From: a virus
Lineage: Duplodnaviria; Caudoviricetes
Reading direction: 5' to 3' (one strand)
Virus record (IMG/VR): IMGVR_UViG_3300037963_002236
Location: 1 to 38,459 of that record
Length of the DNA: 38,459 nucleotides
Part shown: positions 25,861-37,166 of the stretch, piece by piece
Layout of the letters: each line of letters opens with the position of its first letter
Numbering within the stretch: position 1 is the first letter of the stretch
Notes under the pieces: generated by a model
Told to the model about the DNA's origin: nothing
Database searches by the model: none
Seen by the model: only the letters and a program-made list of their open reading frames with translations
Translations under genes and position numbers: made by a program

Positions 25861-26090
25861 ATTCTTCCCTTGGTTTTATTGGTTGTCTTTACGACTATAA
25901 AAAGTTTTTTCATATTCTGTCTGGGACTCCTACATGATATTCGGGCCGATGGGACCCGACCAATGGGATGGCCCCCCTCGCAAATAATTTAATCGGTGTC
26001 GATGCACATTATAAATATTTTCACAAGGCAAAGCGACCCAGCCCATTACAATAACATGCAGACCTCCTCGGTACAGCATCATCTGGCTCA

Positions 26091-26456
26091 CTATTGGCTC
26101 ACCTCTGGCCCAGGGTCACCAACGTCACCAGGGGACTCGGTAGGCAAAAAAGTTTCGCTCACAGCCTGGCCAGTCGTACTTATTTTAGGTGGGTCAAGCG
26201 GTGCCTTCTCAGGCAGAACAATCACCCCAGTTATACCTTTCTGTTCCACTTCCAATTGCATTGCTTTTAAATCTGGGACCAGTTTGGGCAGTAGGATACG
26301 CCACGCTGATACCTGGCGCTTATCATCATCATTCATAGCTACATCAAATAGCTTTTGTATTAATTCGTTCTTCTGTGGGTGGTTACGAACCAGGTCCTTC
26401 ACTGACGTTTTAGGCCTCCCAGTGGGATTACCTGACTCTCCTTTTATAAATGGCAT
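26091..26456 (-). CDS. terS: Terminase small subunit
   Basis: N-terminal PFIKGESGNPTGRPK motif; first gene of the late operon, upstream of terL. Confidence 0.8.
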   Translation of the reverse strand: MPFIKGESGNPTGRPKTSVKDLVRNHPQKNELIQKLFDVAMNDDDKRQVSAWRILLPKLVPDLKAMQLEVEQKGITGVIVLPEKAPLDPPKISTTGQAVSETFLPTESPGDVGDPGPEVSQ

Positions 26457-26545: not shown

Positions 26546-26575
26546 TTGCATAGTATAGTGTTGCAGTGTTACACT
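26546..26575 (+). promoter_or_regulatory. Sigma70-type promoter for the early operon
   Basis: TTGCAT-N18-TACACT with an extended -10 TG. Confidence 0.55.
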
Positions 26576-26965: not shown

Positions 26966-27025
26966 CCATACTGATGATGGCCCAGGTGGTTCCTGGGCCG
27001 AAACACTAAGTGTCTATGGTAACCA
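26966..27025 (+). ncRNA. Type I hammerhead ribozyme
   Basis: Stem I CCAUA/UAUGG; core CUGAUGA plus an extra U; stem II GGCCCAGG/CCUGGGCC; GAA; stem III ACAC/GUGU; GUC cleavage triplet (cut after 27014); loop II UGGUU complementary to the 3' tail AACCA (27021-27025). Confidence 0.9.
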
Positions 27026-27048
27026 AAAATAAAACAAGGACAGCAATC

Positions 27049-27642
27049 ATGAACATAAATCAAAAAGAAACTTTTAAAAATAGGACTCTAACCCAAATAG
27101 CGCTTAACACCGCCATTAGATACTTCATGGATTTTGCATACAATAGATTACAAGATATGTGGAAGATGAAGAAGGATGGTACTTTCTACAAACAAACCCA
27201 GGATGTGATTGATGCATACATCAAGTTAATTCTGGAATGTACCAGTGACCATATGGCTACAGTTTATGGCGCAGATATCAAGGGTTTGAATGCATACATA
27301 GGAAATGGCTATAAAGGCCCAGGAAACAATCAAAAGTTTAACTTTAAGGTTAGTGCTAGGTATTGTGATACAACTTGTGATGAGCCGCAATGGCTAACCC
27401 AGGGCAACTATATGTACGTTGGTAAGAGTGCGCCAGAGTGGCTTAATGCAGATGACTATGAAGAGAATAATAAGAAATTCATCCAGGACCAAAAAGACAA
27501 GTATCCTATCGTATCTGTAAAGGATGCTATGACAGCACAACGACATTACATGAGGCTTAAAAAAGCTATCGATGATGCAAGACAAGCAAGGCGCGATTTT
27601 GCATACGATTTTGGTTCAGAATATTTATCAAACAATCTTTAG
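27049..27642 (+). CDS. Early hypothetical protein
   Basis: AAGGA SD, ATG 27049 (MNINQKETF). Confidence 0.8.
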   Translation: MNINQKETFKNRTLTQIALNTAIRYFMDFAYNRLQDMWKMKKDGTFYKQTQDVIDAYIKLILECTSDHMATVYGADIKGLNAYIGNGYKGPGNNQKFNFKVSARYCDTTCDEPQWLTQGNYMYVGKSAPEWLNADDYEENNKKFIQDQKDKYPIVSVKDAMTAQRHYMRLKKAIDDARQARRDFAYDFGSEYLSNNL

Positions 27643-27656
27643 AAAAGAACAGCAAT

Positions 27657-27815
27657 ATGAAACATATAATATCAAAAAATAATTTTCACAAATTAAGGAA
27701 TGAAATTGCTAATTGCTTTAATGTTTGTTCGGATGATGATTTTATGGCTTTAGATGACGAATTACCAAGGATATTAGAAGAGCAATTAAATGTAAAAGTA
27801 AATTGGGATTTATAA
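27657..27815 (+). CDS. Small early hypothetical protein (52 aa, not in ORF track)
   Basis: MKHIISKNNFHKLRNEIANCFNVCSDDDF...; fills the gap and carries the shared leader motif. Confidence 0.7.
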   Translation: MKHIISKNNFHKLRNEIANCFNVCSDDDFMALDDELPRILEEQLNVKVNWDL

Positions 27816-27835
27816 CTAAAACAAGGAACAGCGAC

Positions 27836-28018
27836 ATGAAAACAGTTAAACAATACTTTAGAATTGATTATACAGATTATCAATGGTATCAATTAATGAT
27901 AAAGAATAACCAAAATTTGCCAATTAGATATGAAGATTGCTTTGATGAGTGTGGAGAATTGAAGGATAAATACTGGGACATTTTTTTGGTAGATATATTT
28001 CAAACTAATCATAACTAG
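27836..28018 (+). CDS. Small early hypothetical protein (60 aa)
   Basis: AAGGA SD, ATG 27836 (MKTVKQYF). Confidence 0.7.
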   Translation: MKTVKQYFRIDYTDYQWYQLMIKNNQNLPIRYEDCFDECGELKDKYWDIFLVDIFQTNHN

Positions 28019-28032
28019 AAAGGGACAGCGCA

Positions 28033-28743
28033 TTGAAGAAAGTATATATAAATAGAAACCCAGAGAGTAGCACTGAACAAGGCAGTGTAGATTTGAAAGT
28101 ACGTTTAGACTTTCCACCAATCCAGCGTGACTTTTTTAATAGATGCTTTGATGATTTAAAGAAACGTATCCAACGCATGACCAATAATCGCAAGATTGGA
28201 ATCCATCATGACGTTCAATGGAATCCATTATGGTCCTGGAATTGGGAATTGAAATATCTACCACTTACAAGGTTAGAGGCTTGGCGTTATGATGAGTATA
28301 GTATGGACCTAATTAAAGGCTATACCAAAGATAGTAAATGGGGCTATAAACATACGTTAAAAGACCCTAATAAAACTTTTAGGGTAGCGAAGAACAAACA
28401 TGATAAAAAATGGCCAGTATTTATGGATTTTAACGCCCATAAATCACCAGAGATTTATGTGTCATTTAGCATATATGACCTGGATTATATCAATGTAGAT
28501 GGTGAGATATTTATAAGTCAGAAGGAAGTATGGAACTTAGAAAAGGCTTTGAAAAGGGTTCATAAAAACTGGCTTAAAGCTTGGGAAAGTTGTTTTGCTG
28601 AGGCACAAAGCATAGTAGATGAAATCAAGGGTGAAGGTGACTTTAAAAATTCTCCAGGATGCTATGAAGAAGGTGGTAGTATGTATGAATGGTTTGGTAA
28701 GCATGAGATTATTAAGTGGGAGAAAAGTAGGGGTTTAGTATGA
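28033..28743 (+). CDS. Early hypothetical protein (Trp-rich)
   Basis: 236 aa, TTG start after AAGGGA; ATGA-coupled to the integrase. Confidence 0.75.
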   Translation: MKKVYINRNPESSTEQGSVDLKVRLDFPPIQRDFFNRCFDDLKKRIQRMTNNRKIGIHHDVQWNPLWSWNWELKYLPLTRLEAWRYDEYSMDLIKGYTKDSKWGYKHTLKDPNKTFRVAKNKHDKKWPVFMDFNAHKSPEIYVSFSIYDLDYINVDGEIFISQKEVWNLEKALKRVHKNWLKAWESCFAEAQSIVDEIKGEGDFKNSPGCYEEGGSMYEWFGKHEIIKWEKSRGLV

Positions 28744-29846
28744 GTAAGTTACCAAATCTGTATGCTAAAAAGAGAGGCGGCTATGTTTCGTATTACTATC
28801 GTTATAAAAAGCATGGCCGCACTCAGCCTATGATACCGCTAGGAAATTCCAGGAAAAATACAATGACCCAGATTAAAGCCAGGTATGTTGAAGCCCAGAC
28901 CAAAGTATGGAATATGATGCATGGAATTGTGACAGAAGCCCCAATTTCTCAAGTAGAAAAGCAAGTTTTGTTTCGTGAAATATATCCCAGATTTATAGCT
29001 GAAGTAGCGCCGCATCATGGTAAGACATTCTTAAGAGATACATACAATATGAAAGCTTTTATAGAGTTCTTTGGTGATGTTAATCACTGGACCAGTAACC
29101 CTAAGACTGGTGGAAAAGTGTCCAGGGATTGTAAAATAGATTTAGCTAAGATAACTACAGCTGACATAAATAATTTTTATGCTAGTGACATCAGTGGTAA
29201 GTCTACATCTACTAAGAAATCCAGGAACATATACCTAAAGCCATTGTGGGAATGGTTAGTAGTCAATGAATTAGTTGAAAAGGATGTATACGCGCTTAAG
29301 CATAAATTAGGTAAGCAAGGTAAGAAGTCTAAGCCTCACCAAGTTATCAAGCGTGAAGATATCTTAAAGATTATAGACTTGACTAACTCTCATAAGCATA
29401 AAGTATTCTGGACCATAATGGCCTACACTGGCTTGGCACCAGTCGATGCTGGTAGCCTGACCAAAGATGATATAGTTCTAAATGGCACCTTCGAATGCAT
29501 TATAAAGTCCAGGAATAAAACTGACATTACAGCACAGATTCCAATTGTAGGTAAACTCAAAAAGATAAGGAACTTCATTACAAATCTTAACATGTCTAAA
29601 AGTGAGCGTGATGCCGCAAATGCTGAGTTTGTAACCTTAGCTAACCAAATAGGAATAAAACAGCGTGAAGGGCATATTTTAGCCCAGTATTGCTTACGTC
29701 ATAGCCTTGCTACATTCTTAAGAACATATCTTACTGACAATGAGATACAAATGTACATGGGACATACAAACACTAAACAACAACAAACATACATTAGCCT
29801 GGAAGCATCTAAGCTTCATGATAAAATGGCTGATGCACTAAAATAG
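28740..29846 (+). CDS. int: Tyrosine recombinase/integrase
   Basis: Lambda-Int-like N-terminal arm-binding segment (LPNLY..YYYRY..LG); YTGLAPVD, RNKT, YCLRHS and MGHTN..TY catalytic boxes. Confidence 0.88.
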   Translation: MSKLPNLYAKKRGGYVSYYYRYKKHGRTQPMIPLGNSRKNTMTQIKARYVEAQTKVWNMMHGIVTEAPISQVEKQVLFREIYPRFIAEVAPHHGKTFLRDTYNMKAFIEFFGDVNHWTSNPKTGGKVSRDCKIDLAKITTADINNFYASDISGKSTSTKKSRNIYLKPLWEWLVVNELVEKDVYALKHKLGKQGKKSKPHQVIKREDILKIIDLTNSHKHKVFWTIMAYTGLAPVDAGSLTKDDIVLNGTFECIIKSRNKTDITAQIPIVGKLKKIRNFITNLNMSKSERDAANAEFVTLANQIGIKQREGHILAQYCLRHSLATFLRTYLTDNEIQMYMGHTNTKQQQTYISLEASKLHDKMADALK

Positions 29847-29858
29847 GAGAAGTAAACA

Positions 29859-30089
29859 ATGACAGTAATAAAAAAGGAATCCAGTAAAACAGTTAGAATT
29901 TATGGACCATCCATAGATGCTAAATGGAATGCTTTTGTCACTCATGCCAGGATGCAATATAAACAACCAGGGCATTTACTTGGCGAGATATTCAATAAGT
30001 ACTTTACTGATAACTTAGAACAAATAACAGCTGACTGCACAAGGGAATTAGAAGAAGCAGATTTAGCATACAAAAGAAACGAGGATTAA
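29859..30089 (+). CDS. Small protein, possible ribbon-helix-helix DNA-binding regulator
   Basis: 76 aa; KTVRIY strand followed by two amphipathic helices; AGGAG SD. Confidence 0.5.
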   Translation: MTVIKKESSKTVRIYGPSIDAKWNAFVTHARMQYKQPGHLLGEIFNKYFTDNLEQITADCTRELEEADLAYKRNED

Positions 30090-30090
30090 A

Positions 30091-30339
30091 ATGAACATAG
30101 GAACAGCGAATAAAAAATTACCAGATGTTGTAAAGTGTAACGCTTGTGGATGTATGGAAGAAAGACTACCATTCAACGCGCAGATACCTACCAACAGACC
30201 ATTTAGAGTAGATTACAAAAGAGAAGTTAAATGGGCTGATATGCCAAGTAATTACAATGGTCCATACAGACTAGGAATGTGTAGAGCATGTGTCATTGCC
30301 TTTGGTGGTGGTGATGGTTACATTAAAATAGAATATTAG
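30091..30339 (+). CDS. Putative Zn-binding protein
   Basis: 82 aa; CNAC...CRAC. Confidence 0.65.
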   Translation: MNIGTANKKLPDVVKCNACGCMEERLPFNAQIPTNRPFRVDYKREVKWADMPSNYNGPYRLGMCRACVIAFGGGDGYIKIEY

Positions 30340-35655: not shown

Positions 35656-36387
35656 ATGAGGTTTTCAGAACAATTAAAATTCGTTAGATTTAAAAAAAAG
35701 CTTACACAAAAAGAATTAGCAAGTATTTTAGAAATAAGTCCAGGTGCTATATATAAGTATGAGAATGAACTTATGAGTCCTGGCTATAAAATTATTAAAA
35801 AATTTGAGAGTTATTTAACAAGTAATAGTGCAGAATTATCAATGCCTTTACTGGATGATATTTCTGAGGACAGCGAATATGGGGAAGTAACCCCTGGAAA
35901 GGAAATAAATATGCAAGTCAGTGATTATATAAATAGTCAAAAACGAACAATACAGTTGTTAGAAAATGAAATAGTGAGGCTTGAAGATAAAATTAAGTAT
36001 TTAAAAATAAAAGGTAATCATAGCAAACCAGCGTATCATTTTAAAATGGTTAGCACATACAAAGCAGAAACCGATGAATGGCTTGACACTGATATATTTG
36101 GTGATTTTAGTATGACTGGATTTACATACGAAGAAATGGTTCCATTAATGAATGAAGAAAATGATAATAATTCCTGGATTGACCGCTACCACCCAGATTC
36201 TAAAGTAAGGCTAGATAAACATACATTAAAAAATATTAAAACTGATTATCATTATTTAAAGTGGGACCATATGATGTGGAAAGCTAAAAATGGTAAATAT
36301 GAATGTTACAACATTGATTTATTATATATAAGAGCAGAAGAAAAAGTAACAAGTATGTTTTATTGGGTAAATGGAGATAAAGAATAG
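35656..36387 (+). CDS. Phage repressor-like protein: XRE HTH + coiled coil + PAS-like domain
   Basis: LKFVR..KKLTQKELA..L.IS...IYKYE....P HTH; C-terminal F..TGFT.EE..W....HPD..W..KNG.Y; no S24 peptidase motifs seen. Confidence 0.8.
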   Translation: MRFSEQLKFVRFKKKLTQKELASILEISPGAIYKYENELMSPGYKIIKKFESYLTSNSAELSMPLLDDISEDSEYGEVTPGKEINMQVSDYINSQKRTIQLLENEIVRLEDKIKYLKIKGNHSKPAYHFKMVSTYKAETDEWLDTDIFGDFSMTGFTYEEMVPLMNEENDNNSWIDRYHPDSKVRLDKHTLKNIKTDYHYLKWDHMMWKAKNGKYECYNIDLLYIRAEEKVTSMFYWVNGDKE

Positions 36388-36391
36388 CAAG

Positions 36392-36412
36392 GGTGAGCCA
36401 AAAGTGAGCCAA
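36392..36412 (+). repeat. Direct repeat copy 1 (candidate integrase arm sites, 2x GTGAGCCAA)
   Basis: GGTGAGCCAAAAGTGAGCCAA, identical to 36618-36638; 11-bp internal period. Confidence 0.85.
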
Positions 36413-36427
36413 CTTAATTTGAGTGGT

Positions 36428-36461
36428 AAAAAAAGAGGGGTCAGAAACGACCCCTTTTTTT
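36428..36461. terminator. Bidirectional intrinsic terminator (repressor on +, reconstituted tRNA on -)
   Basis: A7-GAGGGGTC-agaaac-GACCCC-T7. Confidence 0.85.
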
Positions 36462-36476
36462 GTGTTTTGTCGTCAG

Positions 36477-36531
36477 TGGAGAGAGAGGGATTCGAACCCT
36501 CGAAACGCCTAAACGTTTACACGCTTTCCAA
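36477..36531 (-). tRNA. 3' half of tRNA-Ser(GGA) = att core homology (not a complete tRNA)
   Basis: TTGGAAA anticodon loop, GCGTG stem, long variable arm AAACG/CGTTT, GAGGG-TTCGAAT-CCCTC T arm, TCTCTCC acceptor strand; 5' half absent. Confidence 0.9.
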
Positions 36532-36617
36532 ATATGCATTCTATCCTCGGTAAAACATGTCACCCTCTAATAATCATTACATTTTAATACATTATATAGC
36601 ATATAAATACCTATTAA

Positions 36618-36638
36618 GGTGAGCCAAAAGTGAGCCAA
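36618..36638 (+). repeat. Direct repeat copy 2 (candidate integrase arm sites)
   Basis: GGTGAGCCAAAAGTGAGCCAA. Confidence 0.85.
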
Positions 36639-36682
36639 AAAAAGCCCAAGGAGAGGACAGCGAATCACAAACTCCCTGGGCT
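36637..36682 (-). terminator. Late/lysis operon terminator with an unusually large 18-nt loop (candidate antisense RNA)
   Basis: AGCCCAGGGAG-UUUGUGAUUCGCUGUCCU-CUCCUUGGGCU-U6 beginning at the endolysin stop codon; the G-U pair forms only on the - strand. Confidence 0.8.
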
Positions 36683-37166
36683 ATCTTTCAAGTGTTGATA
36701 TCAACGATTTGAATTTAGCTACGCTACCTTTTCCTTTGCTAGTATTATATGTAGCTTTCCAGAAACTTCCAGCTTCATCAATTGTTTTAGGTAGCGGCGT
36801 AGGTGAGCGCCAGTATTTTAATCTAGCCATTATAATTGCTACAGCCATGTTATGTTCTAGGACCCATGACCATACGTTAGGGTCCTCACTTTCCCATAAT
36901 AGTGGATTAGTAACAGTGGCAACAGCGCATTTTTCTCTAACTACTTTTCTATACTTTAAATAGTTTTTAACACAAGACACAGCACTTTCAGGTTCAAACT
37001 GCCAAAAGCTTTTAGCTGGGCCATCGTTTAATTGTTGTGTGTACTCATATCTAGATTCAACGTATCCAGTCCAAAATAGTAGGTTTACAGCGTTTTTATT
37101 GTTGTACTTATGCCCTAACCTTTTAAGAGTGCCTTTTATTAAGCTTTTAACTTGTTTATGATTCAC
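36681..37166 (-). CDS. Endolysin (lysozyme-like fold)
   Basis: LL..T..VES....Q...GPA..WQFEP..ARLKYWR.P.PLP..WK..YNT..GKG; last gene of the membrane-protein cluster. Confidence 0.7.
   Translation of the reverse strand: MNHKQVKSLIKGTLKRLGHKYNNKNAVNLLFWTGYVESRYEYTQQLNDGPAKSFWQFEPESAVSCVKNYLKYRKVVREKCAVATVTNPLLWESEDPNVWSWVLEHNMAVAIIMARLKYWRSPTPLPKTIDEAGSFWKATYNTSKGKGSVAKFKSLISTLER

Follow-up and report, generated by a model that had tools for sequence, protein, structure and literature searches.

Genome setting of the hairpin

The window, by which we mean the whole virus record of 38,459 bases, carries portal, terminase, capsid and integrase genes and a gene for a repressor-like HTH_3 protein (Table 1). 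A long late operon runs along the minus strand. Its last gene, ORF 36681-37166, is followed by a hairpin (P2) and tandem repeats, then by the 3' part of tRNA-Ser(GGA) with a terminator and more repeats after it, and finally by the convergent repressor gene.

Table 1. Positions of the genes, RNA elements and candidate target sites in the window.
Feature	Position	Strand	Comment
Likely early-operon promoter (TTGCAT...TACACT) with palindromic operator-like GTTGCAGTGTTAC	26546..26575	+	Putative function
Type I hammerhead-like ribozyme (CUGAUGA, GAAA, GUC)	26966..27019	+	Cleavage predicted after 27014; the 27037 site is 22 nt downstream
Target site over SD and AUG of ORF 27049-27642	27037..27053	+	-17.4 kcal/mol
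Weak or degenerate site before ORF 27657-27815	27646..27661	+	-4.7 kcal/mol
Target site, AGGAACAGCG type, one bulge, over SD of ORF 27836-28018	27824..27840	+	-13.2 kcal/mol
Target site over SD of ORF 28033-28743	28022..28035	+	-12.2 kcal/mol
Tyrosine integrase	28740..29846	+	No direct loop site in the pairing model (-0.8)
Target site, codons 3-7 of ORF 30091-30339	30099..30111	+	-12.3 kcal/mol; kept in L094
HTH_3 repressor-like gene	35656..36387	+	Convergent with the late operon across attP
13-nt site inside repressor gene, +211, D-S codons of linker	35866..35878	+	-17.3 kcal/mol
Second GTGAGCCAA repeat pair	36393..36412		Arm-type-like
Bidirectional terminator ending repressor gene	36430..36461		
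Putative attP core, 3' part of tRNA-Ser(GGA)	36476..36531	-	Identical to tRNA gene of two bacterial MAGs
Tandem GTGAGCCAA repeats, arm-type-like	36619..36638	+	Directly behind U tract; role suggested by position around core
P2 terminator-like hairpin	36637..36682	-	Kept in 19 related loci
P2 5' arm	36672..36682	-	
P2 loop, 18 nt	36654..36671	-	
P2 3' arm	36643..36653	-	
P2 U tract	36637..36642	-	
P1 small hairpin directly 5' of P2	36694..36705	-	Overlaps ORF end; 4 bp in window, 6-9 bp in most relatives
Last late-operon gene, putative lysozyme-fold endolysin, 161 aa	36681..37166	-	TAG overlaps hairpin stem

The product of the last late gene had been labelled an endolysin in an earlier note on this DNA. 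It has no Pfam match and its PHROG match is unnamed, while the nearest named Atlas clusters are of the lysozyme fold (scores 0.84-0.85). Because these clusters are its nearest neighbours and it falls in no named family, the endolysin role is likely and is best taken as a lead. Among GenBank phages no integrase match was found and the lysin matches were below 40%, the best 15 all annotated as 'hypothetical'; a scan of genome contigs with the integrase found no relative.

The tRNA part is identical to a tRNA gene of bacterial MAGs, and one host MAG (L277 601-743) holds an att junction in which a phage-like terminator and repeats follow the tRNA, with 83 identical bases. We therefore read the tRNA-Ser region as a probable attP, which the hairpin adjoins. 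The tRNA that ARAGORN called at 36478-36565 is not intact, its 5' half being different from that of the host gene. The attP region (36393-36638) lies far from the integrase gene. A third, inverted arm-like repeat pair is found at 26084-26104 on the minus strand, at the end of a small-terminase-like gene ~10 kb from attP, and inverted pairs are also seen at ~11260-11280 of L003 and ~11275-11295 of L011; each matches the repeat sequence of its own phage.

In the early operon, the ATG of the integrase gene is overlapped by the stop of ORF 28033-28743. The promoter element with its palindrome, GTWGCAnTGYTAC, is similar in most of 8 relatives compared, G001 not being one of these. A conserved 76-aa ORF after the integrase (29859-30089) might, as a guess, encode the protein that binds the palindrome.

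A conserved hairpin at the end of the late operon

The stem of P2 begins within the TAG stop of ORF 36681-37166. The minus-strand fold has 11 bp in the stem, one of them G-U, with a loop of 18 nt and a U tract behind. Its energy is -23.8 kcal/mol (z -3.1) and 2/200 shuffles were as good, as against a z of -1.4 for the plus strand. The fold, the G-U pair and the U tract bear out the minus-strand assignment of the earlier note, and the coordinates and sequences it gave for the hairpin and for six target sites are as it wrote them. With a stop codon, a GC-rich stem and a U tract in succession, P2 has the layout of an intrinsic terminator and is a predicted one; it is absent from a consensus terminator scan because its loop is too long. 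The loop, which holds the candidate antisense seed UCGCUGUCCU, costs 2.1 kcal/mol to open.

To see how widely the feature occurs among relatives, the loop core was sought within 75 nt of the stop codon in 100 distinct loci with a lysin-like gene. It is present in 20, the window and 19 relatives with 45-88% protein identity. These 20 include all loci above 52% identity except L095, and the other 79 loci, which lack the core, are at 50% identity or less. In L095 (61-62% identity) both the hairpin and the first repeats are apparently missing after the stop (L095 1105-1168; the contig ends 64 nt later). The stems differ among the relatives (AGCCC/GGGCU, AGGCC/GGCCU, AACCC/GGGUU, ACCCC/GGGGG) and the loop core GYYGU(U)CCU is retained. 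In 18/20 loci the better fold is that of the lysis strand, on which the G-U pairs and U tracts lie (2 of the 20 rows were mis-parsed). A consensus fold made by RNAalifold from a MAFFT alignment missed the structure, giving four pairs, none of them compensatory, because stems of unequal length were misaligned; the evidence for the stem therefore comes from folds of the individual sequences. A table of stem pairs (108/114 cells paired) was not relied on, since 4 of its 19 rows were mis-anchored. The hairpin is a real feature of this family of uncultured phages with an integrase, and is under selection.

P1 is found in most relatives with its arms changed but still paired, and lies outside the ORF in G003. 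Together P1 and P2 look like a two-hairpin RNA of ~75 nt, of which P1 is possibly the 5' end.

Outside the family, an exact 16-mer scan of viral contigs gave seven matches, none with the P2 hairpin, and a scan based on P1 returned four loci already known and three unrelated matches. One 16-mer match (L005 ~1450-1540, L006 1-100) belongs to an unrelated phage with two adjacent hairpins, one formed from GGACAGCGA/TCGCTGTCC. Across 54 host-family genomes the lysin profile gave two weak partial matches and no intact prophage, and the hairpin pattern eight matches in six genomes; the six matches inspected all lie inside coding sequence. A phage family of 56-58% GC that is unrelated to these phages, and a few other elements, also have the inner hairpin GGAUUGCCGUCC within a GC stem. 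In the high-GC family it lies upstream of a gene on the opposite strand, with no dispersed start-site copies in the 8 loci inspected. The same inner hairpin thus exists there without the start-site tags described below, so the loop sequence can exist for another reason. No Rfam match was found in the GC-stem loci scanned. The GC-stem loci are L213, L228, L244 and L276 with ~35 further matches, and L229, L243 and L251.

Sites complementary to the loop in the window

The loop was scored against 45 regions of the window with a pairing model that includes opening costs. The sites at 27037, 35866, 27824, 30099 and 28022 are the best five of the 45 regions, and all are stronger than the best of 34 minus-strand starts under the same model (-9.7 kcal/mol). 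The six sites listed in the earlier note are all present and five are top-ranked, but the one at 27646 is weak, its energy after opening costs falling in the background range. The target sites are single, linear and cheap to open (1.4-3.1 kcal/mol). With the 27037 site the loop forms 17 bp with one bulged loop base, and the sites at 27824 and 30099 pair only with a bulged A. The 13-mer at 35866, which covers 12 loop bases and one stem base, is the sole match of at least 11 nt to the hairpin in the window, where ~0.005 would be expected by chance. The short motif G[GA]ACAGC has 11 copies outside the hairpin, five of them in the 4-kb plus-strand early operon, which is 5.3% of the sequence space (p 1.5e-4).

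The mean duplex energy of the loop on nine early starts of the window is -12.9, compared with -9.2 for shuffled loops; 4/1000 shuffles were as good, or 7/1000 with UCCU held fixed. A test of contiguous pairing did not place the real loop above its shuffles in the window (202/300), because two of the sites carry an extra A, and a rank test of early against other starts gave p 0.077. The signal in this genome alone is moderate. Among the 11 phages that gave both a loop and early-operon leaders, the early leaders beat 300 loop shuffles in eight (0-7/300), also with UCCU held fixed, the exceptions in the contiguous test being the window, L094 (98/300) and L103 (49/300). The window is the weakest member of the family in this test. 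Enrichment over shuffled loops, which the earlier note had put forward as a check, is therefore found in 8/11 phages in the contiguous test and for duplex energy in the window, but not for contiguous pairing in the window.

The repressor had also been named as a target. Of 10 repressor genes, six have good sites, one a weak site and three none. The sites lie in the leader at -31 in L003, -32 in L092 and -14 in L011, and at the same aligned Asp-Ser codons in the window, L094 and L106; L090 and G008 also have leader sites at the repressor. Given this mixed presence, repressor targeting is frequent but optional, and the earlier claim holds as a common feature, not as a universal one.

Loop and leader tags change together

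Covariation of the loop with the leader motif in related phages, the other check that had been proposed, is found: three loop variants each have matching leaders in their own early operon. The loop GCUGUUCCU of L003 and L092 goes with AGGAACAGC in 8/8 exact start-associated cores, the integrase leader included. Under the loop GCCGUCCU of G004 four leaders read AGGACGGC (twice), AGGATGGC and AGGAACGGC, and none AGGACAGC. The loop of G001, CGUCCUUUC, goes with GAAAGGAC[AG] in four leaders, none of which contains CAGC. The loop GCUGUCCU (G002, G003, G005, G010 and L103) has leaders of the form AGGA[CT]AG[CT], plus one AGGACGGC. G002 is a possible intermediate, with a AGGACGGC leader held by a G-U pair under its GCUGUCC loop. 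A 1-nt insertion and a register shift are both matched between loop and leaders. By our own arithmetic, the chance of three variants matching among ~8 lineages is ~1/336. Direct loop sites at the integrase are present in L003, L092 and G001. Two phages with identical loops, L209 (G010) and L178/L179 (G005), have different leaders: three in G010 read AGGATAGC and those of G005 mostly AGGACAGC, that is, repeated C-to-U changes opposite a loop G.

There are 38 distinct start-associated sites with at most one change from their cognate core, of which 23 are exact, 11 G-U-compatible and four mismatched, sites of close relatives in this count not being independent. Thus 11/15 single changes in the targets still pair as G-U, and 3/4 of the mismatched sites are at the last position in G001. 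The excess of G-U pairs has p 2e-5 against all substitutions and is not significant against a null of transitions only (p 0.28).

When every loop was set against every set of leaders, the cognate loop was best or tied in only 4/11 columns, since a long U-rich loop finds pairing in any A-rich leader; loops B, C and D were best on the leaders of their own phages. The exonuclease places the window among the GCUGUUCCU phages, while its integrase and hairpin match L094. A mosaic origin of the genome is probable and would account for its mixed tags. The relatives, rather than the window alone, are the decisive evidence. Since loop and tags change together across them, it is likely that the hairpin switches early messages off by base pairing, and a trans-acting antisense loop directed in some form against early-operon leaders appears highly probable from these comparisons. 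The trans-antisense reading of the earlier note thus stands on the shuffle and covariation tests, but two of its supporting arguments concern features that are not common to the whole family. A YUNR U-turn motif occurs somewhere in 10/11 loops at varying positions (UUCG/UUUG at the apical loop in 8/11) and is lacking in G001, and the anti-SD arm CUCCUU of the stem is present only in the window and L094.

Mosaicism offers another origin for the tags, as remnants of a shuffled gene-cassette leader homogenised by recombination, with the hairpin a mere terminator carrying a copied loop. The early genes are indeed mosaic, with a common leader context and hammerhead cassettes, and in the window tags of two types occur with a single loop. 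Against such copying, the loop shares only ~9-13 nt with the tags and none of their A-rich flanks, which would be short for gene conversion; the loop persists where its surrounding stem has been replaced; and a terminator has no need of a loop of 18-24 nt. We consider this origin very improbable.

Host signals and a possible protein reader

The tag AGG(A)ACAGC might have been an extended host Shine-Dalgarno sequence. This was rejected: the 16S ends of the host family are normal, CACCUCCUUU (two family 16S genes), and AGGACAGCG occurs once per host MAG of ~2 Mb each. Neither Hfq nor CsrA was found in any of 54 host-family genomes (MAGs that are incomplete or unrated), and the reading of the hairpin as a CsrA decoy is accordingly unsupported.

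A phage protein could nevertheless read the tag, either as stoperator-like DNA or as the RNA site of a translational repressor, with the hairpin copy a further site or a decoy and no pairing between RNAs. Binders may exist among the early ORFs of no known function, some repressor sites lie ~30 nt above the start or inside the ORF, and the sites are asymmetric, in one orientation and over starts, like the SAS of cluster K mycobacteriophages in extracts from their description (PMC3203893). What the hairpin exposes, however, is the complement of the tag, and it does so on the strand that bears the G-U pairs and the U tract; a protein would have to follow both the 1-nt insertion and the register shift that are matched in loop and leaders. 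The tolerated changes are mostly G-U-compatible, no CsrA was found in the 54 genomes, and the early promoter has a separate palindromic operator-like site. It would therefore seem distinctly unlikely that a protein is the reader of the tag.

Comparison with known RNA elements

Among bacterial small RNAs, OppZ and CarZ derive from 3' UTRs, and LhrC is an anti-SD RNA with a loop seed. They resemble the action proposed for the hairpin in that a terminator-bearing mRNA 3' end pairs with ribosome-binding sites, but they are host RNAs and mostly associated with Hfq, which was not found in the host family here. The targets here, unlike theirs, are another temporal class of phage genes.

The closest phage counterpart is the c4 antisense RNA of P1 and P7 (PMC12197685; Rfam RF01695, PMC2864571). 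As described in extracts from PMC12197685, c4 is encoded by the phage, acts in trans through loop complementarity, pairs near a phage ribosome-binding site and blocks translation, all of which is predicted here, and its specificity can differ between phages. According to the same extracts c4 acts on one message, ant, in immunity, whereas here one loop faces up to six dispersed leaders, often with the repressor, and unlike c4 the hairpin sits in a late-operon terminator next to attP. The c4 covariance model had no match in Rfam scans of the window (E<=1), of 8 other loci or of a 171-nt region (E<=10), and P2 itself had no Rfam match. In the c4-a1b1 layout two hairpins, a1 and b1, precede the antirepressor operon; the targets here are single linear sites. 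With no Rfam match and a different target layout, the hairpin works like c4 but is not a c4 member.

The SAS elements, in extracts from PMC3203893, are likewise asymmetric motifs private to the phage that lie over the Shine-Dalgarno sequence of a subset of genes and extend beyond 16S pairing, and their partner, RNA or protein, was left undetermined there. Sequence and host differ, the tags AGG(A)ACAGC do not follow the 13-bp consensus GGGATAGGAGCCC, and here a complementary, covarying RNA loop is present. The GUCCY-hairpin was also considered and rejected: as outlined in PMC2864571, that motif has GUC and CY on either side of a short hairpin, where P2 has GUCCU within a large loop, and only the name is in common. 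Titles and the opening lines of abstracts contained no report of the present element (subscription journals, bioRxiv supplements and supplementary phage-RNA catalogues lay outside this search).

Proposed mode and timing of action

Pairing between loop and tags is well supported. We propose that the two-hairpin 3' end of the late (lysis) transcript would accumulate and act whole or as a processed RNA of ~75 nt. Through its open loop it would base-pair with the tags that cover the ribosome-binding sites of the early/integrase operon, and often with the repressor message, nucleating at the apical UCGCU and zipping to 9-17 bp over the Shine-Dalgarno sequence and start codon, and initiation would be blocked. 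Integrase and repressor would then not be made while genomes are packaged. That a chaperone-free antisense RNA from the late-transcript 3' end blocks translation of these messages late in infection seems to us reasonably probable. The late timing, and with it the 'locking in lysis' of the earlier note, we infer from three points: the position of the hairpin at the end of the late operon, a search for an internal promoter that gave no conserved one, and the presence of integrase and repressor among the targets. This timing is the weakest step of the proposal. Four metatranscriptome runs contain contigs of a close relative (small word shares) that extend ~130 nt or more past the hairpin, assembled contigs carrying no information on ends, strand or level.

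The main rival places the start of the RNA elsewhere. P1 and P2 would form a stand-alone small RNA transcribed from a promoter within the last part of the lysin gene, acting in the lysogen or in early infection and silencing the early/integrase operon as a c4-like RNA immunity. A 5' hairpin followed by a terminator is the layout of a small-RNA gene, and P1 lies outside the ORF in G003. The unit stays intact at the prophage end after integration, and the loop types would confer phage-specific immunity. In the clade of the window TAA[AG]TT stands 6 nt above P1, at the spacing of a -10 box; it falls, however, on Lys-Phe codons, is not kept in the other clade and has no visible -35 element. TATAAT at YN codons of the lysin gene is no commoner with the hairpin (9/20) than without it (31/80). 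If pairing represses, the repressor sites fit lysogeny poorly. Synonymous conservation of the lysin gene is only slightly higher at its 3' end (0.53-0.68 vs 0.40-0.55). An own promoter with action in the lysogen is in our view unlikely, and late shut-off from the end of the lysis transcript is the reading that we carry forward.

Hammerhead-like ribozymes above the tags

The element at 26966-27019 has the features of a type I hammerhead, as modelled: a CUGANGA and GAAA core, a NUH cut site and three stems, with stem I open. Its alignment with the Rfam RAGATH-1-hammerhead is weak, at 18.4 bits against a cut-off of 56.3. In the loci scanned there are 18 hammerhead-like copies with a paired stem I in early operons. 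By our reading of the rows, in 14/18 the predicted cut is followed at 12-26 nt by a ribosome-binding site, which carries the tag in 12 of these 14. Hammerheads near prophage integrase genes are already known; in extracts from PMC3088659 they share the CUGANGA/GAAA/NUH core and the position between genes of the integrase operon, often in several copies, and a link to antisense targets does not appear in those extracts, whereas here the copies are linked to tags.

In late shut-off by the lysis-terminator loop, the early message would be cleaved by the hammerheads that precede many of the tags, and the resulting pieces would start with a short A-rich leader and the tag. This leads to a more speculative proposal, which we put forward tentatively as a possibility, of a late-to-early switch made of RNA throughout. 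Hammerheads would cut the early/integrase message into tagged units, the loop would read the tags and silence integrase and repressor with no protein chaperone, each loop-tag type would serve as a code specific to its phage, and a similar reader may exist for start-associated motifs in other phages. If late shut-off holds, a whole temporal class of genes would be coordinated by one short RNA loop and a private Shine-Dalgarno extension, and commitment to lysis would be tied to production of the late transcript. It would also point to a reader, open to test, for start-associated motifs such as the mycobacteriophage SAS, and suggest a function for the hammerheads so often found near integrase genes of prophages. 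Four natural loop-tag pairs are available that could be swapped in a laboratory reporter.

The hammerhead-like copies lie between early genes, up to four per genome, in the window, L003, L170, L173, L174 and L181, with further loci in L182, L184, L189, L194, L197 and L208, all below the Rfam cut-off. Their stem I is CCAUA/UAUGG or GUUAA/UUAAC.
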